Shown: piece by piece, positions 1,243-56,421 of the stretch
Numbering within the stretch: position 1 is the first letter of the stretch
Layout: every line of letters begins with the position of its first letter
NCBI GenBank assembly: GCA_008632985.1
Contig: QPGO01000167.1
Location: forward strand, 1-64,000
Direction: 5' to 3'
DNA: 64,000 nt
DNA from: Psammoneis japonica
Taxonomy: Eukaryota
Notes under the pieces: model-generated
Database searches by the model: none
What the model was told of the DNA's origin: nothing
Seen by the model: only the letters and a program-made list of their open reading frames with translations
Made by a program: the position numbers and the translations under genes

Positions 1243-1529
1243 GTGGCTTGAATGGTAGTGGGGTCAGTGTCATAGATTTACACGAAATAAATAGCTGTTT
1301 TTCTCGATTCATTACGGTGGTATCCTACTCAATCGTACACACACCGAACTATACATCTTCTGCGCTACTAGGCTTCAAACTAGATTGTATCTCTAGCCTA
1401 GAGATGAGCATCATAGCAGTTACCTATTACCAGTCGTTCGATCGCCGCCGGGACACAACCCGCACGCGCTCTGTACACGCGGACCCCGCACCCCGCAGAC
1501 TTCACAACTCGCGTTGTTGTTGCACACGT

Positions 1530-2900: not shown

Positions 2901-3144
2901 AAATGAACAGGCTCCTCCGCACATTGAGCACATCATTTCCAGTTTGCCTGGTTGTGTTTTGTGTGCATAAAGAACACACACCCAAGCCAATTTTGGCTTT
3001 CACAAGTGCAGAAAAAAGCCTTTGTGGCTTTGCAAAACAGGGAGCATGAAACAATTTTGCAAAAGATTGCACACAAAAATGTGTGTGTGTGATGAGCAAT
3101 GGGGGGACAGGGGGGGGGGGCACAGCTTCTGTGGCCACCTTGAT
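2901..3144 (-). repeat. ~245-bp dispersed element, copy B (inverted)
   Basis: Reverse complement of 1778..2023 (AAGGTGGCCACAGAAGCTGTG-polyC...AGCCTGTTCATTT). Confidence 0.85.
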
Positions 3145-6776: not shown

Positions 6777-7099
6777 TATCAGCTTGGCGTTGTTGATAAA
6801 ACGGTACCACCAATTTCGATGAGACTTAGACTTGTCTTCGGTCTCCTTTTCCATTGATTAGCGTCCAACCAGGGCAGTTATTCAGCACAAAATCGAGACT
6901 ACTGTATTCAGAAACTCAAGACTTTTCAGAACTCCCCATGTGTTGATGATGTGCCGCTTCCCACTTTCCGCATTTCCAATCTGGTGTAATTAGCCTAGAA
7001 CGATAATCCATTTTCATACATTTTTGTGGGAGCATTTCCGAAATGCCGAACACTTGCCGAACCTTCTGCACTGTAGGGCAGGAATGACTTCCAGGCAGA

Positions 7100-10000: not shown

Positions 10001-11100
10001 GGGAATGGTGCTGCCAAGTTGCTCTCCTTTTAATTGAATCCCAACAGTCACAACCAAGCTTGAAGAGGGAAAGCCAGATGGGTGGGAGACAAGGAGATGC
10101 TGCCTGGGGATGCTGTGTTGACCCCCACCATCTCATCGTCTGCACAAATCTGTCGCTGAAGGCAATCTCTGCACCTGGTCAAGCCACTTGCAATGCCAGC
10201 TGCAAGTGTTCTCCAGCCAAATTGGCTGGACATTAGAGGGGGCTTGTTCTGGAGTGCCATCACATTGCTGTCTGTTGTGATGAATTCTCACACCTCACGA
10301 GCCTGTTTTTGTGAGAGTCAGGTTCATCTGCGCAGGATGTGTCTGGTCCTTTTTGACCCTTTCCCCTCATTCTTCAACCACATTGTCTTCACAATCTAAG
10401 ACATGACATTGTCCATGTTGTTTTTGGAGATCTTGGTGGTGCAACTGCATTTCTGGGCTTTGCACTTGGTGAAATGAAGAGGTGGAGGATGGTTTGGCCG
10501 GGCACCTCACCTCCTCTTGGCTGCGCGGATGCCACAAACCACTGCTGGTGCCAGGTTCCATAAAATTTGGCAGAGTCACTCAGAACCACCTCTGGGAGCT
10601 CATGTGGTGAGTGTGCTGTGATGTGTGTCCTCATTGGTTCATTGTTGTGTGTTTCGTTCCACTCGCCACATTTGCACCGCCTTGCTTGCTTGTCAGCAGT
10701 TTGCCAGCACGGAGTGTCTGTGGCTGCTGCGAGAGCCACATGACATGTGTTCTTTGACAACATTTGTTCATTTGGGGAATCAGATCCTGGAGTTTTCATT
10801 GTCTGGTTGTGGACAAATGTGGAAGATGGAGTTTGCTGCAGCAGGCGAACGTGCAATTGCGCTGTGTCTCTCGACGGCAGAGTTGGCAGCGAGCGTGTGC
10901 ACATTGTCCCATGAGCACCAAACCAGCAGATGATGTGTTTGGATTTAGATGGCTCAATGGCTGTCATTGTTTGTTAGTCTGCCAGTGTTCATTAGAGTTG
11001 CGACTGTGTTGGAGCAACATCACATCATGGTCATGCCAGGTGCGGCACGGCGGTGGCACGGGCACAATGCGGTGGCCCTTCCGGACTTCTTTTGCGTGTT
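7100..11100. other. TpA-depleted decayed block 2, grading out towards ~12.1 kb
   Basis: Same dinucleotide bias as block 1. Confidence 0.85.
9245..9905 (+). pseudogene. Heavily decayed RI-type LRR gene copy
   Basis: Colinear with ~13975-14840, including 3' flank, with many indels. The stop TAG has become CAG (GAGGAAATCTAG vs GAGGAAATCCAG). Confidence 0.8.
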
Positions 11101-12447: not shown

Positions 12448-12503
12448 CCAAAAGTTTCCAAATTATTGTTAAAATTCTCAGTCTCTCTGAAAGTCAATCT
12501 CAT

Positions 12504-16749: not shown

Positions 16750-19700
16750 ACCAAAATGCAACTCCAGCCGACTAATGTCATTCTAATAAGAAGTTCCCGA
16801 CAAGTGTTGGGGTCGCAAGTGTTAGGTTTGGTTGGCAATGGAGATGTCACCAAAAATCATCCCTCGCACTTCCACGTGCAATGAAGGCGCCCCACGAAAA
16901 GTCAGCTCCATTTCCAAACACCCAGCACCATGAACAACACGTGCCTGTCACATTCTCGCAAGACACAAGTTTAAAGAGCAGGAGACCAACAATGCTCATG
17001 CCTCGGGTGTTTTGTGGCTCTAGCAGCAGGGGTCAAAGTCCAGCCAGTTCTTCAAAAAATTTTGAGTCGAGTGGTTCATGCGGGGTTCAAGACACGTGAC
17101 TCGGGGTGCGACGAACCCTTTCTCAACAAAGAGATGGCCAATGACATCAACACAAAGCACATTTTTATGGCAAAAGTCTTCTTTAAAATTCATTGTTGAC
17201 GTTGTGACAGCTGCGTTTGACCCGTTTCATGCTTTGTTTGAATGGACGAATCAATCCATGAAAACACATTTGCAAGCCACACTTTTCCATTTTCAGAATT
17301 GACGGTTGCATCTCTGCCAACAATCTGGTGAATGTACAAGCAAGGGGGCACTTCCATTGCCTGACTTTGTTCTTCTGCAGGAGAGCATCATCAACAGGCA
17401 ACTTTTTCAACGTTGTTTGACTGCTTCGTTTGAACAGTGCGCCAACTTCACTCTGCATTTTCACTCCAAAATCCACCCCATGCCCCACCCTCTCCCACTC
17501 AAAAACACTGGCTGATTGCATTGCAGTTGCTTTGTCAAAGTCTTGAAAAATGTTCCTCTTGTCATTGGCATCGCCAAAACGGGTTTGACGATGGGACTGC
17601 AACATTGGATTTGTCGATGAGCTCACACGACGATTGACACTGTGAAAATTGGCTGCATCTGCGTGACAGTTGAGTGAGACAACAAGTGGCAAGACTTTGG
17701 CACAATGACAACACCATTTTGATTCCATGTTGCTTGCCTTCACATGTCTGCCGGCTTTTGCTCTCAGCGGGTGTCGAAAATCCGGCGAATGAGTGGTTGA
17801 TGAAGACTCGGCACATGACATGGCGTCACAAATGACTGAATCGGCATGTTTGTCAACAGCTCGCCACAAAATCAAAATCGTTGAGAGTGCATTTAGATGC
17901 CTGTCCAACAGATGCCAATTGATCATGTGCCAAATGTGCTCTTGCAGAATCGAGGGTTTAGATGGCTTTCTTGGCGTCGCAATCCTCGCCATCGTCGGCG
18001 CAAGATTTGATCAAATTCCCCATGACAGCACCGCGGCGACAGTCTGTGTGCTCATCAGGAGTGCGCCTGCCATGCCCAATTGGATTTGCTTGAGGGTTGG
18101 GACCCAAACTGTGCACTTGGTTGTGTTGGGATGCATCATTGTTTTTTTTTCGGCACAGCTCTGCCAGCCACTGGCTGCTGTCAGAGAGCACAGGACTGCA
18201 CTGCAGAGGCGAATTCATTGATGCCTGCAATCAATTCAACGAACTAAACGAGATTTTGATGCTGCACAATGTCAGGCACACTTTTTTGTGGCCAACTTGG
18301 GCAAGGTTTGCTTTCAACCGCCACACAAGCACTGGTGTCGACTCTTGTCATTTCCATGGTTGCTTCTTCTGTGCTCCTCTGTGGCCTTCCTCTTCAGCAA
18401 GGAAGGTGTCGCCCCCAAGGTGATCCACTTGGCATGGCAGCAGCACATGGATTGGGCTTTCTTCCACTGGTGTCTGAGTCACACCTGGTCTGTGAAGCAG
18501 CAATGGCTGGGCACTCTGGGCACTGCACTCACCCCTTTGGTGTGCCAGCTGCTTTTGTTTGCTGCAGCAGCAGGAAATTTTTTGTCCTGCAGGGCTTTCT
18601 CTTGACTTTTCAAACTGTTGGACCCAAGCACAAACAATGCTGCCCTGTTGACAACTCCAAAAATGTTCTTGTGGGGCCCCAGAGTGCAGCAGCCTGGAAA
18701 ATGCCAAGCATCACATGTGGTTGTCTCGCTGCACACAGATGCTCCAACTTCACCTCAGCAGTCCACAAGGGCACAATTCACAAGTGAAGTGGGAACTTGC
18801 ACTGAGTGGAAAGCAAAAAATCACAAGGAAATGGATTTCTTGATGGGGTGTTTTGGGTGGATTTCCTGGTGAATGACTGGACAAGTGTCGCAGAGCAAAG
18901 TTGGAAGAAGTCAACAACAAAAAGCAGCTGTGTTGTTTCACAATGTGTGTCTTTTGGTTTTCAAACAAGTCATGGCAAAAACCATGCTTCAAAGTTTGTG
19001 AGTTTGTGCAAATGCTCAGCTGCCCATGTCTCTGTGGGTCATGGAGCTCCAGCCAGTCAGGCGAGTCCTTCCACCCTGCGTTGGAGGATGGAGCCACATT
19101 GCAGCTCTAAAAACATCACCAGAGTGTGCTCCTTCATGTTGGTGTGCAACCACAACAAGATGGAAAGACAAACATGCAGCCAGGCACTGTCAAAAAGAGG
19201 AAGCTGCAGCCAAAAGCTGCTCAAACTGAGGCCACACACACACACAGTGTGCAACAGAGCTGCACTTTGTCTGCCATGGACAGAGCCACCATGAGACCAA
19301 CCTGTTGTCATGCACCACAAGTTGGGTGGTTTCTTTTCTCTGTGTCATTTGAGAAAACAAGAATGGCGACATTTGTTTGCCACACACAACATCAAATGGT
19401 TTTGCAGAGCAACAATGGGCACAAACTCCTTGCTTTGCTTCCAAGAACCTCTGTGACAAAGAGAAAGTGTGGCTTGTTTGGCTTGGCCAACACAGCCACA
19501 AGCCCAAGTTTGCTGCTAAAAAACTGCTGCAAATGCTGTCATTCTCTCTGCAGCCAGCAGTGAAGGCATGTCAATTTGCAGCTTCACAAACATGTTTCAC
19601 ATGGTGGGAAAACAGAACAAATTCACAGCATCTGGGAGGGGCTGAGACATTGCTGCATGCCAGAAATGAGAGCAAGTCTTGTTGACTTGGAAACTGATGT

Positions 19701-20350
19701 CCACAGCCAAGAAGCAAAAAAAAACTCAAGTGCGCCAGACTGTGAATGAATTCAAGGCAAAAAATGGAGGGAGGAGGATTGGAGCTGCAACACTGGGCAG
19801 CCATGACTTTGATGTTGTGACAATCATCACATGGGTGCCATTGCACCCGCAGAAGACTTCAATGGAGGGGCAGTGTGGAAGACTTGGAAGCTTGTTTCCA
19901 GCTGTGGTGTGGCGCTGGGCACCAGCAGCGCAGAGTGTGGCACATCAGCAGCTGCCAGTGTGTGCCCCTGGAATGACAGCCAGCTGCTCAAGCACCATGC
20001 CACAGGGTTGTGATGACTTGGAGGTCTTGAAACTGAGTGTGCAACAAAGACATTGCAAAAGAAAAAGCATGCTCAGCCTGTTGGGGCATTGCACCAGCGC
20101 TCTTCTTCTTCCCTGTGTGCTCCAGAAACCTGGCTCCACCACATCAACACAATTCAAGCAAAGCTGGTGCCAGCAAGACAATCCAGCACCAATTTTTTTT
20201 TTTTTTACGACAGACTTCATTTTTGCCATCATTCATTTTGCTTTTCCTTGAGCAGTGTTGTTGAGCGTCAGATCAAGAACTCTCCTCTTTTCTTGCACTC
20301 TCGGCCTGACTTTGCCCGAACAAACCAAAGTTGAGTGAGTTCATCAACAA
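16750..20350. other. TpA-depleted decayed block 3
   Basis: Same dinucleotide bias. Contains retroelement relics. Confidence 0.85.
18150..18870 (+). mobile_element. Relic reverse transcriptase of a non-LTR retrotransposon (CRE/SLACS-like)
   Basis: Across frameshifts: IDACNQFNELN..LML.NVRH..WPT.ARFAFN and FLFSKEGVA/QGDPLGMAA(A)HGLGFLPL, matching DA.NAFN and EG..QGDPL.M..Y.LG.LP RT motifs. Confidence 0.7.
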
Positions 20351-20662
20351 ATTTGTTCTTTTGAGTGGAAGCAGCAGCTGCAGTCACACTCATGATGTTA
20401 ATTGCTCTTCTATCAGGCTCACTCTTTATGGTCATTGCACTCAAAACAACGCGATGAATGCGCTCTCGCTTGTCCGTCGATGCGGTTCATCCCACCGCGA
20501 CCAAGTTCTCGTGTCATTCGTGCATCTCAATAAGTTCAAAATCCTGGTGCCGCAAGGAAACCGCAAAGAACACACGCTGTGTGACCGTGGAAAAATCAGA
20601 TGTTCATTTTACATGCATGCTAACAAAAATTATGTAAAACGGTAAGTTAACAAAGGCCGTCG

Positions 20663-34300: not shown

Positions 34301-35494
34301 TTCTTGTTGTTGTGATTGCAACAATCGTGTACAAGACGTCAAGAGAATCTTGCTGTACAAGATTGTGGCTTCAGCAGAAGAAGAATCCTTCATCATCACG
34401 TTGTTATTGCTTTGCAACAAACTCGCCAAGACGGCATCATAGTTGGTACAATCGGAATGAGACACGCACGTATACAAGACTTGCAAAAGATGTGTACAAA
34501 GATGTGTGCGATACTCGTTTTGTTTCTTCTTGGTCGTTGCCGTCACGTCGACAAACATGGAATTATTGTTGTTATCGTTTTCTTGTTGTTGTTGCTGCAA
34601 CAAAAGCAGTTTGGTTACGGCCGTACCAAAGGCATTGACATCCAAATATGGGACAATTTGATTCAAGAATTGCAAATCGTGCAACACCTTGGCATTGTTG
34701 TCATTTTGATTGGTTTCGTCGTCGTCCAACAACAGTACGGCATTCGTGTAGTTCGAGACGGTTTGTTGAACAACTCGAGTCACAACAACGACATCATCTT
34801 GTTGCGGTTGTTGTTGCAATAGCACTACGACACATTCTTGTGCGTGCTTTCGTACCTTTGGTTTGACATCACGACACAAATGCAATAGCGTATATTGAAG
34901 CAAGTTTTGAACTTGTTGTTCTTCTTGTCGTTTAGAGAGTGATGATGATGATGATGTATTGAGTTTTTGCAACAAATCCATCGATACATCACAGACGGCA
35001 CGCAACGTGGCATTGGGACCAATCGTATTCTTGTTTTGTTGTTTTTGTTGTTTTTGTTTTTTCGTAGGACTACCAGAATGTTCCATCCCTTCCAGTGTTG
35101 CCATGATTTTGACAGTCGCCTTGCATAGACGTACCATCCAACCCATGGTCGTCCATAACGTTGGAATGGAAACGTAGGGAAGAACGTATTGCATCAAATC
35201 CAAAAACGCCACGAGCGTAGTACATGATATTTCGTCTTGTTCTTCTTGTTGTTTCACCAATGATCCTTCCATGGCGGCCAAGATATTGGTATACACGGTT
35301 GCAGCCAAGACTGCATCGTCTTCTTCTTCTTGATTATTATTTACCAGTAGCTCCTTCATGGCGGCTGCCACGGCACCGAGTCGCAACGAACGAGGATTGT
35401 TCTTTTTCTTCTTGGAGGATTCAATCAAATCATCAAGAACTTGAACAAAATTGTCGGAAGAATCATCATCATTATTGTGTTGATCCGTCCGCAT
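31304..35494 (-). CDS. RRP12: RRP12-like ribosome biogenesis protein (NUC173/HEAT); exons 35494..33521, 33420..32716, 32620..31304
   Basis: D.KPKVRK.AQ, LAFFQE.ILPLA, LW.LLP.IC..P.D, RVQKRAYK, EVLLCLKD.N.KTR, and C-terminal YKSKKAGGDVKR..KYEPYAYVPL. Both introns keep the frame. Confidence 0.9.
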
Positions 35495-37853
35495 GATGCT
35501 GTTGCAATGTTGATCTTGAGAGAGTAGTAGTAGTAACAAGTTGTGTTGCTTTATTTTTTCTCAACAGCAATCGACTTGTTCTTGTTGTTGGTCCTTTTTT
35601 TGTTTGTTTGTTTGCGATGAAGTGAGAGCCGACGAGTGGCTGTCAGGCATGACGGCTAGCGGACGGACATGATTTTCGAAAATTCAATCCAAAACCTTTT
35701 TGGGAATCTTTCTGGAAGGAACCATGTTCGGCGGCATTTAGGCTGACAACCCCAATCAAGCATCATCATGCTCTGTCGTCACAAAAGAGCCGAAAAATTT
35801 GTCAATGCAAGTGCCTTGGATTGAAAGCCAACCATTGCACTCTTTTGACCAACAAGGCGCCAGCGTCGCTGCTGTTTCCGGGCCAATGTGCAAACAGCAC
35901 TTGCGAGACTGTGTGACAAGCTCAGAACTGCTCGAGTTTGCCTGGCCATGTCATGGAAAAGATTCAGCCTCCACACCCTTTTTTGCTTTGCGCAAAGGGA
36001 AGCAGAGCAAGAACACACATCTGAGATCCACCAAGCTCCCCTTGCAAAACAACATGAAGGAGCTTTCTTTTCCTCCTCACATCCTGTGCAAACTCAGCTG
36101 CAAAGCATGCTTCATCTTTTGTGCTTCCTTGTGAGGTCTCACTTTGCAAGCAACAAGTGCATCAAAAGGGAGGGCTGCGTGTGCAGGTTGGCCAGTCAAT
36201 TGCACCCAATGTGACATTTTTAGAAATGTGCACTCACACACATTTAACTTCATGACTGAAGGTGGTGCAAATCTGTTTGAGACCAGATTTGAGATCCTCT
36301 CGCCGAGTGGACCGCCCCAACCTGAACTTTCAAATGGATTTGTGCCACCTTTGGTGATGGAGACATTTGATGTTCTTTTTTGTCGCAGTGTGAGATCATT
36401 GCAAGATTGCCATGATGTCACCAATGCAGCAGCAGCAACAGCGCGGTTTCTGCGCACAGGCAGCAAGAGCACCAATCTCATCACCGTTGGCTCCTCCATG
36501 TTTGACAGAGTTGGGACAAGGCTGAGACTGGCTGCAGCACTGCAAGTCTCATCACACAACTTTGCAAAATTTCATCTCCCAGTGCTGTGTTGTCCATGCT
36601 TGATTTACAATGCTCTTGGCAGCTTGTTGGCAACTTGCAGGTGCAGTCTGTCCTCTTGTTTAGAAGTGGCTGTCTCTGAACATGCATGCATTGCATTCTG
36701 CTGTTGACCTGAGCTTGTGATGCTGCCAAATCATTTCTTGTTTGCTTGCATTTTTGTGTGCCATCTGTCCAACAGCAGCAATGAGGACTGCTCTTGGGTC
36801 TCCATTTCAGTTCAAGACAAAAAAATTGCACCTGGTTTTGTCAAAATTCATCTTCCGGCACGTTTGGTCATTGCTTCCACCTGAAAGCCACAGCACCTCA
36901 CACATCTGGATTGGCGCCAACTTCATTTCAACACTTTCACCTCTTGCTTTTTTCTTGCATCTCCAACATGCTGCCATGGGTGGGTTGAGAGAATGTTGGG
37001 GATCGAGCTCGGGGCTGCATCATTTGGGTTCCTCCAGTGTGGGCCAGTGCATTGTTGCAACCTGACAACCATTTTTGGACATGCCAAAAAGCTTTTTGCA
37101 CACTGCTGCCTTCTTCTTCAAGTGTGGCAGCTGCAACCCAAGGAGGATTTGCCATTGAAGATTTCATTAAAAAATCTGGAGGCAGGGCAGAATGTCTTTG
37201 CAAGGATTGGCACAGAGGGCAAGTGTGCTGCATCTCAAATGCAAGCACTTTGTTGCCAGGCTGTTGGAGAATCCGTGCAAACTCAAAAAGGGGGGAACGT
37301 GTGGCATGAACAGATTCAATGCTGGCTGGTTTGTGGTGCTTGGATTTGTTGGCATGATCAAAAAGAAAAGTCAGCAACAGGGGAGACCACTGGTGTGAGC
37401 CAACTGGAAATGAGCACGTGGTGCAATGTGCAGCAACAAGTTCGTCAGCAGAAGCATTTGGCAAGATGTCATGCTCACTCACACCCCATGTGAGAAAAGG
37501 CTCTGTGGGCTTGAGAGAGCCTTGGAAGATGCCACACAATGGCGCGGCACACTCACATCTCACATCACATGATTTGCATTCATTGCCAATAAAAAAGGGA
37601 CAACATGTGCTGCTTGTTTTTTTAAAAGTTCACCTGCCACATCAATCTCAGTTTCTGAATGTGAAACATTGAAAATCAGGCGCGTTTGTCTCTCACAGTG
37701 CCTTGTTGCCATCATGCAGGATTGAATTTGCTTGATGCAAACATTAAAAACAGGCACTCTTTCATGCTGGTGGTGCAGATTTAAATGGCTTTATTCATTT
37801 CTGTTTGCATCATCTCATGTCCCACAGTGCTGTTTGTGGAAAGTGCCCCAGAG

Positions 37854-38129
37854 TGACAGAAATTGAAGGCAAATGGCAAGAATTCAAACAACAACTCCTT
37901 GCTGCTGTCTAAATGGCAGATGAGTCTCCGCTCAGAGACTGTTGCAGGAGCCGAAAGATGTGTGAGTCGGCACAATCGGGCCACTGTTGTCATTCTTGTG
38001 AGCCTTGTGGCTCGAAAGCAAACTGCATCGCGTGCGAACGCGCGGAACTGAAGCACACAAAACTGTGCGCGGCAAACTAAACAGCGCGCAACATTTTGCG
38101 CGCACCCAAATCCTGTTCAAATCCTGTCA
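37854..38129 (-). repeat. 3' LTR
   Basis: 276 bp, preceded on the minus strand by the purine tract GGGGAG (38130..38135). Confidence 0.95.
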
Positions 38130-41100
38130 CTCCCCAGTTTGCTTGAGGAGTCACAGAAACAGATTTGACTTCGGATGAAATGAAGTTCCAGAACATGAGG
38201 GGGCGGAGAAGGTCCCAGATTTGGGAGCAACCCCAATGCTTGCTGAGGATGTCAGCAGGGTTGCGGGAGCCTTTGATGAAGTGGAGCTCAAGGCAACCAG
38301 AGGCAATTGCCTCACGCACACGGTGGAACGACAGTGCGGTGTGTCGCTTGTGTAACTTGGAGTGCGGGATGGTGGCACTGTCTACAACCGACTTGTTGTC
38401 ACCGAACATGTAACTGACATTACGGATCGGGACGCCAAGGTGGTGCAGGGTGATGCGCAGGTCAACAATCTGCTCGACACAAGTCCTTGCGGCAACAAAT
38501 TCAGACCCACAGGTTGCAGTCTCCACGGTGGCTTGCTTCTTAGAGAACCAATCAGCCGGGAATTTGTTGAGGAAGTGGAGCATTCCCATGACAGAGCGTC
38601 CGGTGAGCATGCAATGGCACAAGTTTGCATCGATGCAGTGGGTGGCAGTGACGAACTTGCCAAGGGGCGGTGGAGCGTCCTTCGGGATCATCTCTTCTGC
38701 TTCGCCGTACACGGAATGCATCCATTCACAGGCCGGAGCAGGGAGATCCGAGTGGTCGGGCTCTTCCGTGCGAACGCGGAGAGCACCGTGTCGCATCTTG
38801 GAGAGGTGCCCACAGACGCGTTTGGCATGATCCAAGTGGCCTTGACGGGGCGCAGCTCGGAAGCTAGAGAGTGACATGACGGCCGTGGCAATGTCAATTC
38901 GACCAAGGGACACTGCCCATTGGAGTGAACCAACAAGAGACTGGAACTTGTGAATGCCATCGGGTCCCAGCAGTTCGGAAGTGTCCAGTTCGGGGTGGTC
39001 ACCCTTCTCCAGAGGTGACAGGGCGTTGGTGGTGGGTTTCTCCCCAAACAGTCGGGCGCAGCTGTCAACCATGCGCTCGATGTACTTGCGCGGAGACAGG
39101 CACAAGGTTCCGTCGGGATCCCGGGAAAAGTCGCAACCCAGATGGAACTCAATGGGTCCCGCACCCTTGAGCTTGAACTTGTGCTTTTCCGTGAGAGCAT
39201 CGACGAAAGATTGAGGGTCCTTCATGGCAATGGCGAGGTCATCCACATAAACGGCAATGCATTCATGGTGGTCGCCGTTCCTGCGCATCCAAATGTCGGG
39301 TTAGGCGCGGCAGGGGAAGAAGCCTTCAGCTCGCAGGCAGTCGGCGAAGCGCTCATGCCAGCGGAGACCGGAGCTGTGCAGTCCGCACAGGGCCTTGTGG
39401 ATGACAAGGATGTGTCCTTCGAGTTTGCCAAATTCGGGTCCGACTGCAATGTAAAGCTTCTCCTTGGTGGTGGCTTCAAGGCAGGCATTGCCAATGTCGG
39501 TGGCCCATGTCTCCAACTCGTTGAGTTCGGCCAGGAAAATCATCAGCCGAAGGCCACGGAGGGAGACCACTCCGGAGCAGACACTGTCGATGGGTACGTC
39601 CGTGAGGTGCCCGTCGGCTACGAGTCGTGCCTTGTGGCGACCGTCGTGTTTCACGTCGCACACCAGGTGCACTCGGATCTTCTTGTGTCCCGCAGGAGGA
39701 GTGGAAGACTCGAAGGGCCCGCAGTCATGGAAGACTTCATGTTCGTCGAGTTGGTCCATCTCGAGATTAGTTGCGTCTCCCCATTTGCGGTTGCCGTTGC
39801 ATTTGTCTGGTGACATGGCATGCTTGCAGTTCCGGGGAACTTCGCACCCGCATTTGCAGCGAGGTGCAGTGTGGAAGGAGCGAAGCTTGGCTTGGTTGGC
39901 CATGCGAAATGGCTTCTTTTGGCGCCTCGCGATGGTGCGGAACCGCTTCCAGCCATCCGTGTTGAGGAGTCCGTTCTCTCATGCATAGATGGCGCAGGTG
40001 ACGGGGTCGTCCTTGGCGATGATGGCAAGAGGCTCGGACGTGATCTCCCCACTTTCCCATTCAAGCATGATGTTGTAGCTTGAGCCTTTCCAGGTTGGGT
40101 CGTGAGGCTTCAGAGGTCCTTCGTGTGACACGATGCGTCGAAATTTCCAAATGGTGGTGTCTTCGTCTTCTTGCTCAATGTGATTCATGATGTCATTGCA
40201 GGCAAGGACTTCCTCGCATTCGTCGTTGTTGACAGAGCAGACGAACTTGGTGAGCTCGGGATTGCCGTTCACTTTCCATTTGTGGTCTTCGACGGCCTTG
40301 ACGATGCGAGCTCTGTGGCGTTGTCCGTCCTCTTGTGGCTGCATGAGGAAGGTGCGTCCAATGATGTCTTGTGGATCGAAAACTGGCATCTTGGGTGTCC
40401 TGATCTCCCCATCAGGAGAATCGACGGGGTTGTCATCATGGCGAGATTTGATGTTGGGTTCAGGCAGGAAGGTGCGTCCAATGATGTCTTGCGGATCAAA
40501 AACTGGCATCTTGGGTGTCCTGATCTCCCCATCAGGAGAATCGACGGGGTTGTCGTCATGGCGAGATTTGATGATGGGTTCAGGTGGCTCCCCATCAGGA
40601 GGATCAAGACGTGGGTTTCGAACGGCAGGATCGGTGGTGGCGGAGCGGACGTTGGACCGGCAGAGGATCTTCTGGGTCTCGTCAGAGAGAATCTTGAAGG
40701 TCATCTGGTGGCCGACGTGCTCAGCAATGCCAACGAAGCGTCCACGCAACTCACGGGATTCGGACGGCCAATCGGAGTCATCGAGGTGGAAGTGCATGGG
40801 TTCCCACCAGTGAAAGCGAAGCAATGGGCTGATGTCCGGGGTGGAGCCAGTGAGAGTCTCGAGGGGCGTGCGCCAGTGGAGACGTGGGGACGCTGCATGG
40901 TTGAGTGTGAAGCACACACACATGAGCGCCAGCAGCCATGTGTGGGCGGGCGAACCAAAACGATCCATGACAGTGTTCGCCATGCGCTTCACGGTCTGGC
41001 ATCGACGCTTGGCACAGTTTTGGTGTTGCTGGTGAGGCTCACTTTGCCAGCTGGAGATGAAGAGGGCCCGCAGGATCCCGAGCACTTTGTTGCTGATCTC

Positions 41101-43866
41101 AACTTGAGCACGGTCGCCAATGAGTTTGGATGGGGTGCCACGCTCACGGATCTGATCCTCGAGTGTGTTGACAAACTCTTTGTCCGTCTTGGTGCTGCAG
41201 ACGTCAGCGACGGTAGACTCGGTGCCAACAAACAGTTGGGCACTGGTGCAACCAGAGTCGACGGCCGGGGTGTCGGCACAAACGGTGTCAGTGGCGACAG
41301 GCTCGTTGCGGCGGTGCACATTAAGGGTGGGGTTGGGTGATTTGCAGGCCTTCCTAAGGTGTGCACCGGCGGGCATGCGGGCGCACTGCATGGTGCAGTC
41401 AAAAGTGCGACGGACCACATCGGCAGGCAGGAAGCCAAAGTGAGGCCGAAGAGACTCGAAGGGCGGGTCCTTGGGCTGTACAGTGCACTCCGGGGGTGGG
41501 ACGTCATCGTCCTTGGGGTCAATTGCGTGTAGATGACACTCGCAGAACACGTTGTCGTCCGGAATGAGGTGATCATTGAGGGCGGACGCGTGATCGGCAG
41601 ACAAGGAAGCAGACATGATGGTCTCGTTGACAATGACACGATGACGGCAGTTGCCGCATTCGTCAAACAGGTTGGCAGTGGGATCGTCCTGCAGGTCAGA
41701 GATCGCGTCGCACCACTGGTCGTCGTCAGCGACAGAGTGATCGAGGATGGAAGGATCCCATGTGCCATCACCGGTGAGGATGACATGGGGCAGGGTGTCC
41801 CATTCGGCGTCAGTGCAAGGTCGCATGGCAACACAAGGCAGGCCGGCCTTGATGTCAATGGGGATGACACAGCCATCAGGAGTGGCAACACGTTGCAAGC
41901 CGTTGGGCACCTTGACAGAGCGATCGTTGACATCCTGTTTGTGCCATTCGAGCTGGCCGCAGGAATGGATGGTCTTGCCCTTTCCCGTGCATGCGCACTG
42001 ATGGAGGATGGCGATGACGGGACCACGCTGGGTCTCAATGACGGCACCAGCGGTGACAATGGGGATGTCCACCATTTGATGGTCGTCAATGCCCTGAACG
42101 TCAACTTGGCGAGAGGTGCGTGCAATGACGTGAACGTCGTCGCCAGCAATGCCACCGTTGGCCCCACGATCGACTGGAGTGCCAGTGCGTGTGGAGCGAT
42201 GAGCAGAGGCAGAGCAAATGACATTGTGGTTGTTGATGCGGCGGCAAGTGCGGCCGTTAAGTTCCATGTCATCGGCAGAAGCTGGCGGGGTAGAGGGGGC
42301 GACGGATGGCCCCGGTCGACTGGCATTGGGGGCTTGGTTAGGAGACAACAGATGGTGCAGATCACCGGGTGGCAGTGGCTTGCGCTTGGTGAGGTGCACC
42401 AGGATGGGATCATCCGAAGTGGCACCCACATTTGGAGCGGAGTCACCAGAGTCAGCAGGAGTCGTGTTGGACAAGTTGACATCACCGTCACTCCCAAGGC
42501 GTTGGTCGTGAAGGTTGGCCGTAACGGACTCATGGCAGTTGCTGTCTCGCGGGTTGCGGGGAGGCGGACGAGAATGCTCAAGGATGATCGCCTTGGAGGA
42601 ATGGGGCAATGAATCCCAAATCCGTTGGTGGTCGGGAGGGAGACGTTTCCATTGGTCACCGGCGAGGCTGGGACCACGGGTGTGGGCAGCATTGGCCTGA
42701 AGGACGTCAATGTCACTGTCAATGTCACAGAACACATCGTCGGACGGTTCCTCGGAGCAGACGTCGTGTGCGCACATGGCGCGGCGGGGAGCTCGAGGTG
42801 TTGTCTTGGGTTGAAACGCACTGTCGCATTGGGCTGCTGCGGAGAGGAGCAAGCCACAGCATTGATCGCATGTGAGGCTCTTGCCACTCTGCGTACGATG
42901 CTGATCAGCTTGGCTCTTGACAGCATGGAGTTCCTCGACAGGGTGCACGGCATTCTCGAGCATGACGCGCTTCTGTCCTTCAGAGAAGTGGTCACTGGCC
43001 GGGATGAGTGCCTCGCACTTGCGCAACTGGTCTTGCCAATGAAGGATGAACCCGTGGGTCGGACCTTTCCAAGTGCCATCACCAAGACGTGCGGTGGCAA
43101 GGTACGTCAGCAGGGTGGAGGACTCGACAGATGCGCGGGTGGAGGCGAGCGCGCACTCAGACAAGGCGCGGCAGATGGTCTGTGCATCAGAAGACCCCAC
43201 ATTTTCGCGGATGAGAGCCTTGCCCTTGTCGGTGAGAAGGATGCGTTCGAAGACGGCGAACACGCACTTTTGCTGTTCAGCAAAGAGCAGTTTGTCTTCG
43301 GGGCTGGTCGGTTTGTACGACGAGTCTAGAATGCACTCGACGTCTTGGGCACGGGCTTGTGCCACAAGTGAGGTGTGCCAAGTGTGCCACTGCTTGTCAG
43401 ATTTGAGAGCCGTGAAAGCGGTGGGATCACGCTTGATGCCTCGCTTGAAGTCCCGCACCGGGTCGCGTGCCTTGGTCGGGTTGGTGACATGCGGAGGTGC
43501 GAGGGGTGAGCTGCCAATGGACACAGAAGACATGCAGTCGGGGCTGAGGCGGCAGGCAAGGAACTCGTCATGCGTGAACAACGAGAAGTCATTGGCAACG
43601 TCAAGACCTTTGTGTGCTTTGACAATGTACAGACTGGCTAGAGCTGCTGACATGTTCTCACAACCACGGGGCAAAGGGATCACATTAGTGCCGTTGTCGC
43701 ACTCAAGCGAGTCGATTTGGGATGGTGTGAATGCGAATGGTTCTTGATGCGAGTCCGTGCCATCTTGTGCCAAAGCCAAACTGAGAGGGCTCCAAGCACC
43801 TTGGGCAAGCACGGTTCCAACAACATGCTCGAAACCATCGGTTTGTTGCTGACGAGTGAGAACCAT
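38077..43866 (-). pseudogene. gag-pol polyprotein, one frame with two premature stops (39979..39981, 39301..39303)
   Basis: Protease VDRGANGG; integrase TDTV..D, DRAQ, QSEPHQQHQN; RT HKARLVA, YVDDL; RNase H DANL, SEFVA, GDNKSV, NPADILSK. The three track ORFs share one frame. Confidence 0.93.
40346..40585. repeat. 120-bp in-frame tandem duplication in the IN-RT linker
   Basis: IKSRHDDNPVDSPDGEIRTPKMPVFDPQDIIGRTFL occurs twice. Confidence 0.92.
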
Positions 43867-44789
43867 GGTGGACAAAAGTGGTGTCAGGACAAGCAATTCT
43901 TGTTGGGAAGCGAAGGCAGACTTGAAGCTTGGGTGAGAGCAGACTTGACTTGAAACAGACTTGACTTGAAATCTTGAACTGTCTTGAAATCAGAAGTCGC
44001 CGGGCTTTGCTGTCCCGTTCGTTGTCAAGTGCCAAACTTCCCATCCGGTCCGCAGAATTGTGCCGGCACGTCCGAACCCGCAGCCAGCGGCGCTTTGGGT
44101 TGCTTGCGAGCAGAGCAGCGGGTTGTAAACCCCTGCAGGTGAGCTGACCAGAGGTGGACAAGACCCCCGAACCGTTCTTGTTTTATGTCGGTTGGATTTC
44201 CCGATCAGGCTGGCCAGTTGACGCAGGCGTTGGGCGCTGTGGACGAACGAACAAACGCGGGGAAAGCACCCTCGCCCCAACGTGGGCTGCAATCACGGCT
44301 GCTTGCTCTCACAGTCGTCCTCGTGGACCTGGCAGAACTGCAGAGCACCAGCAGTCCGGGGTAGATCAGGTGCAATGGACTCGGTGTGCTTGTAGAGTGG
44401 CAGCAAAACCGCAGTCCGAAGAGTGGGTGCAGGTTCTTGGCCGTGAAGACATGCACACATGCACATGTCTTCAGCGACGAAGATCCTTGAACATGTGGGG
44501 TTCTTGACCGTTGACCGATGAGCAGGTGCATCAAGGGATGAGGATCAAGGACAGACTTGGACATGACCGTTGAATGCATGTCTTCAGTGACCAAAGGCAG
44601 CACAATCAATCCAGATGTCCAGCGGCAAGGAGACTTGACGGTGACGTTAACTTCCTGCCGATGCCCTGGCATTGAATGTGCGCAGACTTGCCCGTGCATG
44701 TAGAACACATGCGGAGGTCCACGCAGAATTGAAGTGGCATCGTTGGTAAATCAACGACGACGATGGCGGTTGCTCAATGGGTTGACAAT

Positions 44790-44806
44790 GAGCAAGACTG
44801 TTAATC
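44790..44806 (-). promoter_or_regulatory. Putative primer-binding site
   Basis: GATTAACAGTC directly abuts the 5' LTR. Its complement GACTGTTAATC resembles a tRNA-Asn(GTT) anticodon arm. Confidence 0.6.
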
Positions 44807-45082
44807 TGACAGAAATTGAAGGCAAATGGCAAGAATTCAAACAACAACTCCTCACTGCTGTCTAAATGGCAGATGAGTCTCCGCTCAGAGACCGTTGCAG
44901 GAGCCGAAAGACGTGTGAGTCGGTACAATCGGGCTACTGTCATCATTCTTGTGAGCCTTGTGGCTCGAAAGCAAACTACATCGCGCGCGAACGCGCGGAA
45001 CTGAAGCACACAAAACTGTGCGCGGTAAACTAAACAGCGCGCGACATTTCGCGCGCACCTAAATCCTGTTCAAATCCTGTCA
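44807..45082 (-). repeat. 5' LTR
   Basis: 276 bp, colinear with the 3' LTR without indels. Confidence 0.95.
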
Positions 45083-46959
45083 CAGAGCATGACCTGGCAT
45101 GCTGGTGGTCCTGGCAACAGGAGCCAATCCTCAAAATGTCATTGCAGGGTGTTTTTGGTGCAAGCAACCAGTCAACCTGCCCTCTGTGCAGTTTCCACAG
45201 GTTCAAAAACAAAGAGAATGTCAGCAAGGTCATGACTGTGAAGGCCAAGATGATGATGAGTGTTGGCACACAGATGAGTGCACAGGAGGGAGGGGTGAGA
45301 CAGATGGGGAGGAGGAGGTTGACAATTTAGAGGCTGTCACCCCCATCCCAGTCAAATTACAACCTTCCTGACTTCCATGTTTCCAAGGAAGAAATTCTTG
45401 TTTGTTTGTTGGAGCTGGTGCAGTTGAACACTGCAAACAGCCAGTTGCCTTCTGACACACACAGATGGTGTGAAGTGGCAAGGCAAAGACTTGCAGATTC
45501 AGAATGAATTGTTGGAGACCAGGGGGGTGGCATTGGAAGGATGCTCCAAATGCTGCAAAACCTGATCACAGAGACAATGATCAATTGAAATGGCAAGTGC
45601 CTCTGTCTTTTTTTTAGTTGGCGTCATTCTGAGATTGTGGTGGCATCTTGACCTGCGGATCTCGACTTTTTCCAAGAACAACCGGACAACTGCGCACTGC
45701 ACAAACACAAATCGACAATTCGCAAAACATTGCAGACTGCAAAAGAAACACATGAATGCTCACAAACAAAATGCAGTCACTGCTGAAATGACAATTGTTG
45801 CTGGGTGTGAACTCTGCTTTGTGCCGCCACAAAAGGTGCCACTGTAGAGTCCGCCTTGACTGTCGTCAGGTGATGCACAACAGACCGATGCATTGCAATT
45901 GTGCTCTCCAGTGTGACCAAATTGGCCGCTTCTTCTTCTTCTCAATGAGACACTTGATGTTGCAAAAGAATGAGTGCAGATGTCATCTGTCCAGTCAATG
46001 GAACAGTCTGACGTGGCGGAACATGAAACTTTTCCAGTTGAGCTGCCATCTTCAAGAACAATTTCAACAGATCTCGAATCGCATTTTCTGGCACACTCTA
46101 AGAGGGTGCTGCCAACGGCCTCCCCACAGCAGATGAGGTCACCCTCCATTGGTTCTCCAGCCGGTGGATCTTCCAATTCATTCCACATTTTCGAAAAACA
46201 ATGAGGCAAGGCAAGTTTGTGAAGCTGTGTGCGATTCAAGCAGCTCATCTGCGGTGCTTGTCAAGCATGTGATGAACAACAATGCAAGAGGAGATGCGTC
46301 ACACGACTTGCCTCACCGCAGCTTTTTTCAAGCTCACAAGTGATCTGGTCGGATTGTTGCAAGCTGCAAAACAAGTCTCCCTGGTGTTCACCATGCTGCC
46401 GCAACAATTTGCAGTGACGCCACATCCAATTGGCTCATGTGTGTTGGCATCAAATGGACCAAGCAGGTGAACATGGCCTTTGTTCACTTGGGTGTGATGG
46501 CAAACATCTCCTGGAAAGGTCACCATGTTGCCAGCCACCTTTGCCACTTGCTCAAAATCTTTCTGGCTGGCTGATGCAGAACAGCCTCAGCTTCTTTGAC
46601 ACTGCCACGCACTTTTGGATGTGATGCATGCTGTTGTTGAATTGTGTCGACTTCTCTGTTTTCACAGCCACAATTGCATTAAAAAAACCTTTGCTTTTGT
46701 TGACTCAGGTTGACATGCTGTGCAGTGTGCAGTGCTGCACCCGACACAGCTTGCCATGTCATGCAAGAAACCCTCCCCAGATGTTGGGAGATGATCTTGT
46801 GCGGCGCAACTGGTGGGAAAATTCACTTGCCATGCAAAAGGCCAAAGCAGAAGACCACAACATGTGAGCAATGAAATGTGTGAAGCAACTGACATTTTCA
46901 ACATGCCTGTCCATTGCAGCGACTCTGTTGAGAGACAAGCGACCCCACAATGAAACCCT

Positions 46960-47615
46960 TGTTAAAGCAAATTGCACTGTGCAGTGCGTTTTGAATTCCT
47001 TGACAAGTTTTTCAATTGCCTCCAGAGACATTGCATCTTGATTGATCTCTTGAGAGATGTCAGGCTGTGAAAGAACCATGCAAGCACCACAAATGTGCCA
47101 TTGAGCACGTTGAGAAAACTTGCAGATTCTCTTGGTGGCAAGCACATTGGCGCAGACAATGACTCTCGCACCCCCTCTTCTTGTTCTTCTACCAACAAGG
47201 TTCCTTCCATGGTGGTCAAGACATTGGCACACACAGTTGCAGCCAAGACTGCATCTTCTTCTTGATTTACCAACAGCTCCTTCATGGCAGCTGCCACGGC
47301 ACCGAGTCGCAATGAACAAGGATTGTTCTTTTTGTTCTTGGAGGATTCAATCAAATCATCAAAAACTTGAGAAAAAAAACTGTCGGAAGAATCACCATCA
47401 TTGTGTGGATCCACCCACATGCTGTTTTTGTCACTGACAGCTTTGGTGACAACTTGTGTGCCGCACAATGGAGAGTCTTAATTTGGCACAATTGACAGAG
47501 TGTCAGTTTGTTTCTCAACAGCAAATGTGAAATGGTTTTGTTGGTCTTCATTTTTTTGTTGCGAGAGCACCAACAAGTGGCTGTCAGAAATGGTGGATGG
47601 CTGACTGACATGATC
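46960..47615 (-). pseudogene. Decayed duplicate of the RRP12 5' end and upstream region
   Basis: DDLIESSK.KKNNP.SLRLGAVAAAMKELLVN..EEDAVLAATV matches ~35230-35495. Upstream motifs match ~35555-35672. Confidence 0.9.
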
Positions 47616-49786
47616 ATCAAAATTTCAGTGCAAACCTGTGGGTCCAGAGGACATGTTGCGGCAGGCCCCACATTTGTCAGGTGGTTTGAAACAACAACAC
47701 AACATGAAACAGTGCACACTGTGCATCCTTTGGGGAGCATTGGCCACTGTCTCTCATTGAGTCTCCGATCTGCACCAAAAGTTCTTTTGTTGCTCATCAA
47801 AGAAGACAGAGGTGGGAAGGAATTCCCACAGAAAACAACAGCAAGATGACAAGTCAGTCGACCTCCCCCACCTCCTTCTCCTTGGGGCAGGAGTGTTGAA
47901 AGAGTTGCTTCAAAGCACTCAAGCAGCAAGAGCAGATGAAGCAGTTGCACCTTGTGAGACTGGTCGTGTCTTTCAACAACAAACCAAAGGGCAGCAAGCT
48001 GGGGACTGGGGACAAAAAAAAGCTGCAAACACCCAAATGAGACTGAACTTCATCTCACATCTGTCTTGGTGGTGTTTCTGGATGAGAACACTGCAAACAA
48101 CTTCATTGCAGATGTTCACAGCCATGTTGCCAGCCAAATCACCTGGTGCGGCTCTTTTCAACAAAAAAGACTGCTGTGCTTTGACAGATCCCTTTGGTCC
48201 AAAACATCTTGTCCTTGAAACCCACTGCAAGCACAGCGAACAAGACAGGGAGAGGCGCCACTCAACTCACCTGTTTGGGGTGTTGAGTTGCATTCCATTG
48301 ATGCCTCCTCTGTCATGTCATTCTGCACTTTCAATGACACTGTGTGCAAACATCAGAAAATTGAGGAGCGCAATGCATGTTTGCTCAATGCATGCCCAAG
48401 GGCGCACATGTTTTCCCAAAGGCAAAATGTCACGGCACTTCTTGCGAATGGTTGGACAAAGAAAAATTCAACCACAGGCTTGCTCTGAGGAGTGGAGATG
48501 GCCACCAGCAAGTCAACGGCACAGGCAAGGGGGGCAAGGTGAGAAGGCAAAGACACATCCCATGGTCTTGTTGTTTGTCAGCTGACTGGCATGACCCCAA
48601 CTCAGCTCAATGGTGCTGGCTTTCAAAAGATCGATGTCCGTCTCTGGCACACTGGTGTGAAAAATGTTGCTGAAGTCTGGCAGCCTGTTCCACCCAACCA
48701 CACAACACTGCACAGTGAGGGTGAGCTTTGCTGCTTCAATGTTGTTTTCTCTTCTGTGAAACACAGCAAGAAAGAAAATTGCTCTTTTGGACACATGGGA
48801 CAAATCAACAAAGTCAGCAGCCATGCATGAAGTCATGCAGTGTTTGCTGCACTGATGACTTTTTGAGCAAAAAGGAAAATGCCCCACATGCTTTTGTTCC
48901 ATGCTGTGCAGCACACAAGTTGCCCATGTGCTGGCATCATTTGTGCCACTTGTTGTTGTTTTGGCTGTGCATTTTCAGAGGCAGGTTGTGGGCACATTTT
49001 GCCTCTTCAACCTGATGGGGCAGCAGCACCCTGCTGCAACAACAACAGGCCCTCCCCAAGCTCTGCATTATTTCCTGTCACAACAAAGTGCCAAATGGGG
49101 TTGATGTGCATGACTGATGGATGGTGGCTGCAGCAGCATCAGGGTCGGGTCATGTGCGGCAACCTCCCACAACAAGGGAGGTCTGTGGGTGTGGTGGCAG
49201 TGCCCCGCATGCCAAAGAAAGAGATGTGGTGAGACACTGAACAGGCCTCAAGATTGACTTTTGGGGACCATCACATGGTGTTTTGAAAAAAAAAAAAAAT
49301 TGATTGGTGCAGCAGTGCCCAGTTGTTGGGGCTTGGCCCTCTGTCGTGCTTCACTGCTTGTGGTTGGCCGGCTGTGCATTCTGTGCCTGGCCAGCATGGC
49401 CCTGGCTTGCCAGAGAGCACTCTTAACCCTGGCATTGCTGGCTCCAGCATGCCACGCTGTTCAGAGCTTGAAACCTCCAGAGCACTGGAGTGTTGGCATT
49501 GTGCGAATGAGGTTGTGGGCAGCAATCCAATCTCTCTCTCTGAAAGGTTAAATGCAACCACTGAGATTGTGTCTAAAAGGTGCAACTAAAAAATGCCATT
49601 CCCAACATTCTGCTTGAAGCAGACAGTCAGTTGTGATCATTTTCTTCGCACCCTTCTGTGCAGTGTGTGACAAATCTGCGCATGCACAACTGCTAGATTC
49701 TCTACATAAGACTCTCCACATGTCACAATCATGGCAGTAGATGTCAGATTGTGTTACCGGTATCTAGAGCTCAACTACCCAGAGGT

Positions 49787-55124: not shown

Positions 55125-55329
55125 TACTTCGTCGTCAATAGCTCAAAGAGGATCACGACGCTAGATCTAATGCAATCATTGTTCATTGCGTCGTCAATGT
55201 ACTTGTAATGACAAACTCTGTCTGCTAAAGTCTTAAAGAAGCCAACTGAAGACAGACGAATACCTACTAGAAGAAAAGCTACGCCATAACGACCAACGAC
55301 GCAACTTGCAACTTGCGGCGCAAGCAACA

Positions 55330-56190
55330 AAATAAAACGCCCTGTCTGTCTCTCTGTTTGTTTGTCTGTTTGCCATGTTGACAGTTGCGAAGGTTCTCTC
55401 CAACCTTCCATCTCGCAGGGGAAGGGCGGCCACAAAGTTGCCACCAACACTTGGCTGTTGAGCCATCAGGAGCAAACAGGATGCAAATGCCAAATGGACA
55501 CAAGGAGTGATCCATCAATCACAGACTGGCCCCTTCTTTTTTTCTCCAACAGGGTTGGTGTGTGTGCTGCAAGGCTTGTGTTCTCGCCCCTTCTCTTCTT
55601 CCAGCGTCAAAGACACCTTGGTTGTGGGCAGGTTTTTGTGAGAAAAGGTTTTTGCTGTCTGCCAAGTTTTTGCTTGCAGGCATTTTACAATTTGTGAGAT
55701 GTTGTGAGCATTGGCCCTGGCTCCTCTCCAAAGTTCTCATTTGTTTGGCCATTTCTCGCACACACGCACCCCCCGCTGCTTCGCTCCTGGCATCACTGGC
55801 CCATTTTTGCATTTGACACAATGGGCTCTTTCAAAATCGGGTTTTTCCCAAATCGAAGGGTGAGTGCACACAAAACTCTAATTTTTGAAATGATCAAATT
55901 TGAAAGAGTTCAACGCGCCAAATTGCACAGAAAATCAGCCTCTCGAGTGATTGGTTTCTCATCAGGGGAGAGGGCGGGGGGGCAGTTGGTGTTTTTGTGC
56001 TCTTTAATTGTTGGGGAGGCCCATCTTGTGGCAACCTCATGTGTCCAATGTGTGCTTGCATGTGCCACATGCCAAATGGATGAGACACAGGACACAGATG
56101 AGTGCTCTCTGCTCTGGAGCCTGCGGCAGCCGGCAGCCACCGGGGCGGGGGGAGCACTGACCACCGACTCCAGTCATTTCTTCTCCGCTT
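55330..56190. other. Small TpA-depleted block 5 between divergent genes
   Basis: Same bias with sharp edges. Probably a decayed repeat. Confidence 0.7.
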
Positions 56191-56421
56191 CGAATAGCCC
56201 TACGCATTAAGTCATTATTCAGATAAGGTCATTGATTCACATAAGTCATACACAACACTTATTGCGAGGAATCTTCAATGTTCAAAATAAGATCATTAAA
56301 CGCACTATCGAAACATTTATTGACGACCGCACCGCCCACGACATCTTTCATGCATCAAACACAACATAAAAACAAAAAGCGCAACTATTCACTATATCTT
56401 GTGTAACCGATTTCATCCAAC

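Follow-up and report, generated by a model that had tools for sequence, protein, structure and literature searches.

The two long terminal repeats of a diatom Ty1/copia element differ only by transitions at pyrimidine–purine steps, a probable trace of TpA and CpG hypermutation in place

How do the two long terminal repeats (LTRs) of one insertion, both made from one template, come to differ at 12 sites without a single change of the ordinary kind? The question is raised by an element at positions 37854–45082 of a 64,000-nt stretch of DNA from Psammoneis japonica (GenBank assembly GCA_008632985.1, contig QPGO01000167.1, positions 1 to 64,000; this whole stretch is called the window below). Judged by its reverse transcriptase and homologues, the element is a Ty1/copia LTR retrotransposon; neighbouring genes mark the host as a diatom. 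We consider, with a probability of about 0.7, that hypermutation in place at TpA and CpG explains the LTR pair. All 12 LTR changes would then have arisen where the element now lies, and the CpG part would probably have been driven by methylation.

The two LTRs were aligned with MAFFT (the coordinates of all features are collected in Table 1). The alignment had 276 columns without gaps and 14 differing nucleotides at 12 sites, a divergence of 5.1%, and an independent repeat search found the same pair at 95%. The sites comprised four CA/TA, one TG/TA, four TG/CG, one CA/CG and two TG/CA double differences. All 14 of the differing nucleotides were transitions and all 14 fell within pyrimidine–purine (YpR) steps, with no transversions and no differences outside these steps. 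YpR steps cover 144 of the 276 LTR positions, and the chance that 12 of 12 independent sites would fall there is about 4 × 10−4. The LTRs start with TG and end with CA, and the 5-bp target-site duplication CAGAG is intact on both sides. A sequence-only reading of the window had counted by eye 12 differing sites (14 nt) and no indels, and had sorted them into five TA versus CA/TG, five CG versus TG/CA and two TG versus CA; the alignment bore out the count, and the classes matched site by site. The intact target-site duplication that it reported was found directly outside both LTRs, and its suggestion of a TA or CG origin for the two TG/CA sites is consistent with CA/TG as a sink state.

The coding strand of the element is the minus strand, and therefore the right LTR is the 5′ LTR and the left LTR is the 3′ LTR. 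The gag-pol frame of 1,970 codons contains only two stops and no frameshift, and because of this the element appears to have undergone little ordinary mutation. The Pfam domain RVT_2, the Ty1/copia type of reverse transcriptase (RT), was matched with 47.2 bits (cut-off 31.6) in the open reading frame (ORF) at 39301–39903 and with 26.9 bits, below the cut-off, in the ORF at 38077–39288. The latter, distal ORF of 403 aa had 2,884 homologues with identities up to 69%, several of them named as Ty1/copia-type; the named relatives were few and came from Cylindrotheca. The proximal 1,199 residues (39982–43578) had 11,591 representative protein relatives at E ≤ 0.001, and no relatives of the element were found among viral contigs. 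The upstream ORF of 1,305 aa (39979–43896, minus strand), which corresponds to gag, protease and integrase (gag-PR-INT), gave no Pfam match at E ≤ 0.001, to which the loss of Tyr and gain of Cys and His described below may contribute. Long polyproteins of the copia kind, among them P0242 (1,881 aa, query 42–1943), aligned along this ORF, and the integrase was not recognised as a domain. A candidate polypurine tract adjoins the 3′ LTR, and inspection by eye beside the 5′ LTR recognised no tRNA-complementary primer-binding site. The GC content of the element was 0.57 compared to 0.48 in the flanks.

The copia family to which the element belongs was very abundant in a public run of the same organism, where 14,465 contigs were placed in X1 and copies ranged from <90% to >99% likeness. 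Across window positions 37602–45126, the summed depth was 55,000–233,000 over the element compared to 56–154 in the flanks. Two contigs linked the left flank (37827/37853) directly to the right flank (45085/45102) without the element, the junction being altered by a few substitutions. They stem either from an empty-site allele, in which case the insertion is heterozygous, or from a paralogue of the flanking block.

The direction of the changes was read from codons for conserved residues, using 60 homologues for the RT/RNase H part (conserved Tyr column, Tyr in at least 80%) and 150 homologues for the gag-PR-INT part (conserved column, at least 70%). In the RT/RNase H part, Tyr was kept at only 4 of 18 conserved columns and was replaced by Cys (TGY) at eight, His (CAY) at five and Phe at one, compared to 283 of 309 other conserved columns kept (Fisher p = 4 × 10−11). 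The gag-PR-INT part kept Tyr at one of eight columns, with five Cys, one Phe and one Trp in its place, and kept 236 of 256 other conserved columns. Both parts combined thus retained 5 of 26 conserved Tyr, with 13 now Cys (TGY) and 5 His (CAY), and about 92% of the other conserved residues. Over the whole polyprotein, Tyr made up 0.5% of residues (10 of 1971) compared to a median of 4.0% in 270 homologues, and Cys 3.7% compared to 1.0%. Because TAY codons turned into TGY and CAY, TA is the ancestral state, and because both the Cys and the His outcomes occurred, both DNA strands were affected. Conserved Arg was replaced by His at four columns, which gives the same polarity for CG. By these protein comparisons, TA and CG are the older states and CA/TG the derived ones.

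The public run also showed how other copies of the family vary. In X1, 486 of 559 variable places were transitions. The 40 best-supported variable places were examined, with 531 more beyond these, and 31 of the 40 were YpR transitions. At 15 of them the window copy had CA/TG where CG was found elsewhere, often in >90% of the depth, and at nine it had CA/TG where TA was found elsewhere; at the remaining seven the window copy kept TA or CG and some other copies had CA/TG. LTR sites 38090 and 38097 were CG in 91% and 83% of the depth of other copies and CA/TG in the left LTR, and the left LTR is therefore the derived one at these two sites. At site 44936 the right LTR keeps TA, one third of the other-copy depth has TG and the left LTR has CA; this is the same TA changed in both possible ways.

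More distant relatives carried parts of the same signature. Related copia loci from metagenomes had an observed/expected ratio (o/e) for TA of 0.54–1.07 in 75 of 79 cases, compared to 0.14 for the window element. Among 120 homologous proteins, three (P0075, P0097 and P0099) had Cys or His at 10 of 16, 11 of 19 and 6 of 18 conserved Tyr columns, respectively, and P0099 is encoded on metagenome locus L005 with a TA o/e of 0.33. The more distant loci L070, L073 and L075 had a TA o/e of 0.24–0.32, a CG o/e of 0.03–0.06 and a CA+TG o/e of about 1.9. These sequences are signs that the process may not be limited to the window copy.

The depletion of TA extended beyond the element and was restricted to certain regions. 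The TA o/e of the whole window was 0.39, and segmentation separated five blocks, together 26,000 of the 64,000 bp, with a TA o/e of 0.06–0.10, a CG o/e of 0.23–0.62 and a CA+TG o/e of 1.53–1.83; the rest of the window had a TA o/e of 0.58 and a CG o/e of 0.99. The element lies inside the largest of these blocks. Its flanks held 0–7 TA per 500 bp (expected about 26–38) and 3–19 CG (expected about 25–37), compared to 49 TA in the 7.2 kb of the element itself (TA o/e 0.14, CG o/e 0.86). The left LTR had lost five of seven TA and 5 of 22 CG. The lead of TA loss over CG loss in the element, compared to the flanks, is what one would expect if TA is lost quickly and CG more slowly in stretches of DNA that differ in age. 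The block sequence was complex and not microsatellite-like. A public contig matched the flank at 37119–37631 with no differences in 513 nt, and another flank match had four in 918 nt; the TA/CG-free state is therefore not an artefact of one assembly.

The few TA that survive in the blocks were mostly found in TTAA and CTAA/TTAG (survival ratio 0.54–0.60), and ATAT, ATAC/GTAT and ATAG/CTAT were almost gone (0.01–0.03). Either the process itself favours some contexts over others, or other mutations make new TA more readily in some contexts, and we drew no motif from these figures.

The spectrum of the LTR pair was also in excess of the background in the window, as measured in three control pairs of duplicated genes. 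YpR transitions accounted for 62 of 249 mismatches between ammonium-transporter (AMT) paralogues (Fisher p = 1 × 10−8 compared to the LTR pair), 39 of 182 in a pair of leucine-rich repeat (LRR) genes (13889/50700) and 6 of 18 in the 959/13623 pair, and each of the three differed from the LTR pair with p between 10−4 and 3 × 10−9. Thus, the duplicated genes of the window show ordinary spectra. Together with the absence of any non-YpR difference between the LTRs, these spectra support the claim of the sequence-only reading that the changes arose in situ far above background. The 5.1% divergence of the LTRs came entirely from two fast classes, with no change of a background class, and a standard LTR clock would therefore overestimate the age of the element, as that reading had also argued.

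Repeats that lie in TA-poor DNA leaned in the same direction as the LTRs. YpR transitions made up 3 of the 4 mismatches between two 119-nt tandem units within the element (three CG versus CA/TG and one transversion), and the inverted pair and the 954-bp tandem duplication (10.5–12.5 kb) described next gave 8 of 11 and 16 of 30. An inverted repeat at 1779–2024/2900–3143 (245 bp, 93% alike) lies inside a depleted block and possibly represents the ends of a small DNA transposon; the 8 of 11 mismatches in question (1779–2024/3143–2900) were CG-type or TG/CA doubles. The tandem duplication at 10529–12453, with units of about 960 bp that are 94.6% alike, is found at the edge of a depleted block. A direct repeat (35241–35473/47176–47402, 230 bp, 84% alike) brackets the element at distances of about 2.4 and 2.1 kb and has a mixed spectrum, 9 of its 20 mismatches being YpR transitions.

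The changes were unevenly divided between the two LTRs. At 10 of the 10 sites with a single difference, the left (3′) LTR had CA/TG and the right (5′) LTR had TA/CG (binomial p = 0.002); when the doubles were counted as one change per LTR, the ratio was 12:2 (p = 0.013). The right-hand 480 bp of the element (44600–45082) hold 11 of the 49 TA, and the CG-to-TG states private to the window copy extend up to 44588. The promoter-proximal end, consisting of the 5′ LTR and about 200 bp, may have escaped both processes under some protection, such as an active promoter free of methylation might enjoy. Alternatively, gene conversion may have replaced the same end with sequence from a copy in which decay had gone less far. 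A-to-G changes on the sense strand were in moderate excess over Tyr codons and LTR sites combined (17 versus 6, p = 0.035), a weak hint that would agree with the non-template strand being changed more readily.

The mechanism that we propose is that a young Ty1/copia element was changed after insertion by two context-specific processes acting on silenced or foreign DNA. One would be a fast A:T-to-G:C transition only at TpA, which gives TG when one strand is affected and CA when the other is. The other would be slower and turn CG into TG or CA, as from deamination of 5-methylcytosine. CA/TG would be the shared end state of both, and old targets would be left nearly without TA and CG. In the window copy, the 3′ LTR and the interior would have been changed, and the 5′ LTR with the adjoining 200 bp or so mostly spared.

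The differences could have been made or mimicked in other ways. In ectopic gene conversion, one LTR and the adjoining sequence would have been overwritten from another family copy, and the differences would sample a polymorphism in TA/CG decay. A family this abundant and polymorphic would offer many donors, a tract from a less decayed copy would account for the single direction of the 10 sites and for the 11 of 49 TA in the right-hand 480 bp, and the target-site duplication would be left intact. However, the donor would need to have no non-YpR difference across 276 bp, the two TG/CA sites would still require changes in both lineages, and the many private interior CG-to-CA/TG states up to 44588 represent real in-place decay. 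We find conversion unlikely, and the ultimate cause, TpA and CpG hypermutation, would stay the same. Consensus or polishing errors, either from base-calling at modified bases or from mis-polishing with reads of other copies, would be another source of such differences. Base-callers for long reads call transitions in error where a motif is methylated. The positions at which the LTRs differ are the very ones that are polymorphic within the family, which is abundant enough to mislead polishing; yet public contigs reproduce the TA/CG-free flank, the Tyr-to-Cys/His signature is present in 3 of 120 homologous proteins of other assemblies, and a near-total absence of TA over kilobases cannot come from base-calling. 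An artefact is accordingly very unlikely.

Two further explanations were rejected for the LTR differences. ADAR-like editing of the element RNA at UA, fixed by reverse transcription before insertion, would agree with the moderate sense-strand excess of A-to-G, and it could still contribute to variation among copies. It is highly improbable as the cause here since one template gives both LTRs and no edit before insertion makes them differ; in addition, the five Tyr-to-His changes and one LTR change require the other strand, and blocks of non-repeated flank are also TA-free. Repeat-induced point mutation (RIP) of the fungal type, with C-to-T changes at CpA and CpG, would have made the TA sites, and the mutations would then lie in the right LTR. 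All differences are indeed transitions in CpA, TpG, CpG or TpA contexts. However, TA is depleted rather than enriched in both the element and the blocks, codons for conserved Tyr now specify Cys or His, and the right LTR would require C-to-T plus T-to-C. C-to-T at CAA, CAG and TGG codons would be expected to give several stops rather than two, and neither stop fits, one being a TGA opposite Lys/Arg in the homologues and the other a transversion from Glu. RIP was thus rejected on polarity, TpA depletion, raised GC and open frames, and we regard it as the least credible of the explanations considered.

Within hypermutation in place, the chemistry of the TpA process can be framed in more than one way. 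The chemistry that we prefer, tentatively and with the odds somewhat against it, is the one put forward for the alga Bigelowiella natans, in which an enzyme deaminates adenine in DNA to inosine. The main chemical rival is a modified thymine at TpA, for example 5-hydroxymethyluracil (5hmU) or a derivative made by a TET/JBP-type oxygenase, that pairs with G and so gives T-to-C. The outcome would be the same, with TA turned into CA or TG on both strands, and 5hmU in dinoflagellate DNA is reported to favour TpA and TpC. However, this analysis found nothing for thymine modification in diatoms, and an adenine deaminase similar to ADAT2, itself unproven, is what the single study of this signature puts forward; we consider a modified thymine rather unlikely. 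A broader and equally tentative possibility is a chromatin-targeted DNA-editing defence of diatoms in which A-to-I changes at TpA in silenced DNA, together with CpG methylation, would lead to the TA/CG-free end state with the active promoter in the 5′ LTR shielded. Since a rhizarian alga shows this signature as well, such a system may be old across the stramenopiles, alveolates and Rhizaria (SAR).

Several points weigh against hypermutation in place as we have described it. A process that makes no distinction between two identical LTRs would not lead one to expect their asymmetry, which needs either promoter protection or a conversion tract. The LTR evidence is one intact pair in one 64-kb window, and the 12 LTR bases rest on the assembly, as the family is abundant and the public contigs (X1–X4) break at the borders of the element. 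The depleted blocks are assumed to be foreign DNA, and the flanking ones are low-copy by contig depth; none of the 82 stop-to-stop ORFs of at least 90 aa in blocks outside the element had a Pfam match at E ≤ 0.01. We infer the TpA chemistry, including the enzyme that would carry it out. Finally, CG decay accompanies TA decay here, and no CpG component is mentioned in the available text of the B. natans preprint; the two systems are thus not identical.

Table 1. Positions of the element, its parts and the depleted blocks within the window
Feature	Position	Strand	Basis or remark
Depleted block: TA o/e 0.08, CG 0.42, CA+TG 1.83	1501..4400		Segmentation; no Pfam match in ORFs
Depleted block: TA o/e 0.07, CG 0.23, CA+TG 1.82	7001..11100		Segmentation; no Pfam match in ORFs
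Depleted block: TA o/e 0.06, CG 0.39, CA+TG 1.74	16801..20600		Segmentation; no Pfam match in ORFs
Block with the element: TA o/e 0.10, CG 0.62, CA+TG 1.60 (element included)	35401..49700		Segmentation
Left target-site duplication copy, CAGAG	37849..37853		Direct reading; identical to 45083–45087
3′ LTR (left in window), 276 bp, TG..CA, decayed copy: 2 TA, 17 CG	37854..38129	−	Alignment
gag-pol frame, 1,970 codons, stops TGA 39979–39981 and TAA 39301–39303, no frameshift	38077..43989	−	ORF reading
Candidate polypurine tract, purine-rich, adjoins 3′ LTR	38130..38140	−	By eye
Reverse transcriptase domain, Pfam RVT_2 (Ty1/copia type), split by TAA stop	39061..39696	−	Pfam
In-frame tandem duplication in polyprotein, two 119-nt units, 97% alike	40346..40584	−	Repeat search
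5′ LTR (right in window), 276 bp, spared copy: 7 TA, 22 CG	44807..45082	−	Alignment
Right target-site duplication copy, CAGAG	45083..45087		Direct reading
Short depleted block: TA o/e 0.09, CG 0.44, CA+TG 1.53	55301..56200		Segmentation

Other genes in the window include three for ammonium transporters, of which the tandem pair at 22138–24029 and 25706–27433 lies on the plus strand, a single short gap resembling an intron interrupting each, and the third lies on the minus strand at 62579–63981. They are 77–81% alike in DNA, and their best matches, at 70% identity or less, are in Seminavis, Nitzschia, Entomoneis, Amphora and other diatoms; the genome thus resembles that of a pennate diatom. About ten tandem 129-bp units at 60170–61501 lie within a minus-strand ORF of 854 aa and show an ordinary spectrum among themselves; this ORF had a weak match to DUF6824 (E = 0.0019) that was below the cut-off.

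Hypermutation of A:T to G:C specific to TpA has been reported once so far, in a 2026 preprint on a chlorarachniophyte. If our explanation is true, it also occurs in diatoms, which are major primary producers in the ocean, and it acts in place on retrotransposons and has remodelled about 40% of a 64-kb window. Diatoms would then be a second lineage, and one open to genetics, where the enzyme could be sought. As the present pair illustrates, dates taken from LTR divergence cannot be relied on in such genomes, and a system of this kind that is old across SAR would reshape a large share of some genomes and invalidate LTR clocks there. Old insertions become invisible to protein searches yet keep long open frames, which may mislead gene prediction and repeat annotation.

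The signature can be compared to four known systems. A literature search for TpA hypermutation in diatoms, in which subscription journals were thinly covered, returned only the B. natans preprint and papers on fungal RIP. RIP changes C to T mainly at CpA and thereby creates TpA, lowers GC and makes stop codons. The window element resembles targets of RIP in ascomycete fungi in that transposon copies carry context-specific transitions and a dinucleotide signature. In contrast to RIP, TpA is destroyed, GC is raised (0.57 compared to 0.48 in the flanks) and the frames are open. ADAR prefers a 5′ U, and APOBEC makes G-to-A changes in GG and GA contexts. Editing of retroelements by these animal enzymes shares with the present case transitions of the deaminase type with a preference for certain neighbours, but it acts on RNA, or on cDNA before integration, whereas here the LTRs of one insertion differ. 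The decay of CpG in methylated transposons is similar in that CG turns into TG/CA in kilobase blocks of repeats or silent DNA and not in gene-rich stretches, and it accounts for the CG half of the signal only. According to the available text of a study of diatoms, methylation is predominantly at CpG and is found on repeats, in large blocks beside unmethylated gene-rich DNA (PMC5124317). By analogy with Cyclotella and other diatoms, the blocks in the window may carry it as well.

The closest likeness is to B. natans. In the part of the preprint available to us, mutation-accumulation lines gained 231 mutations within a pair of integrated viral regions, of which 230 were A-to-G or T-to-C, and all GC-biased mutations were at TpA, at a rate about 1000 times the background (Mettrop et al., bioRxiv 10.64898/2026.01.13.699255). 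Other TpA-poor clusters rich in CpA and TpG were enriched for reverse-transcriptase and DDE domains, and the authors proposed that an ADAT2-like adenine deaminase acts on DNA; CpG, diatoms and LTRs were not mentioned in that part of the text (bioRxiv 10.64898/2026.01.13.699255). As far as this source goes, both systems turn TA into TG or CA on either strand, regionally and, in the diatom by the indirect evidence of the LTR spectrum and the nearly intact frame, far above background in foreign or silent DNA, and both leave TpA-poor, CpA+TpG-rich clusters in which GC is driven up. In the window, TA is ancestral, with 18 of 26 conserved Tyr now Cys or His, and the deep TA depletion is confined to 26 of the 64 kb of this one window. 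Compared to what is available on B. natans, a rhizarian chlorarachniophyte, the host here is a diatom and hence a stramenopile, the target is an LTR retrotransposon and low-copy intergenic blocks rather than integrated viral DNA, and the evidence is historical and comes from sequence rather than from mutations accumulated in real time. The depletion is also deeper, with a TA o/e of 0.06–0.10 in the blocks compared to 0.45 in the nucleocytoplasmic large DNA virus (NCLDV) region of B. natans. Changes were exclusive to TpA there, whereas in the diatom element CG went to TG/CA at half of the sites that differ between the LTRs and at many in the interior, which suggests a second process superimposed on the TpA process. 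What is new, if hypermutation is the cause of the LTR pair as we think probable, is TpA hypermutation of the B. natans type in a diatom, on an LTR retrotransposon and overlaid on CpG decay.

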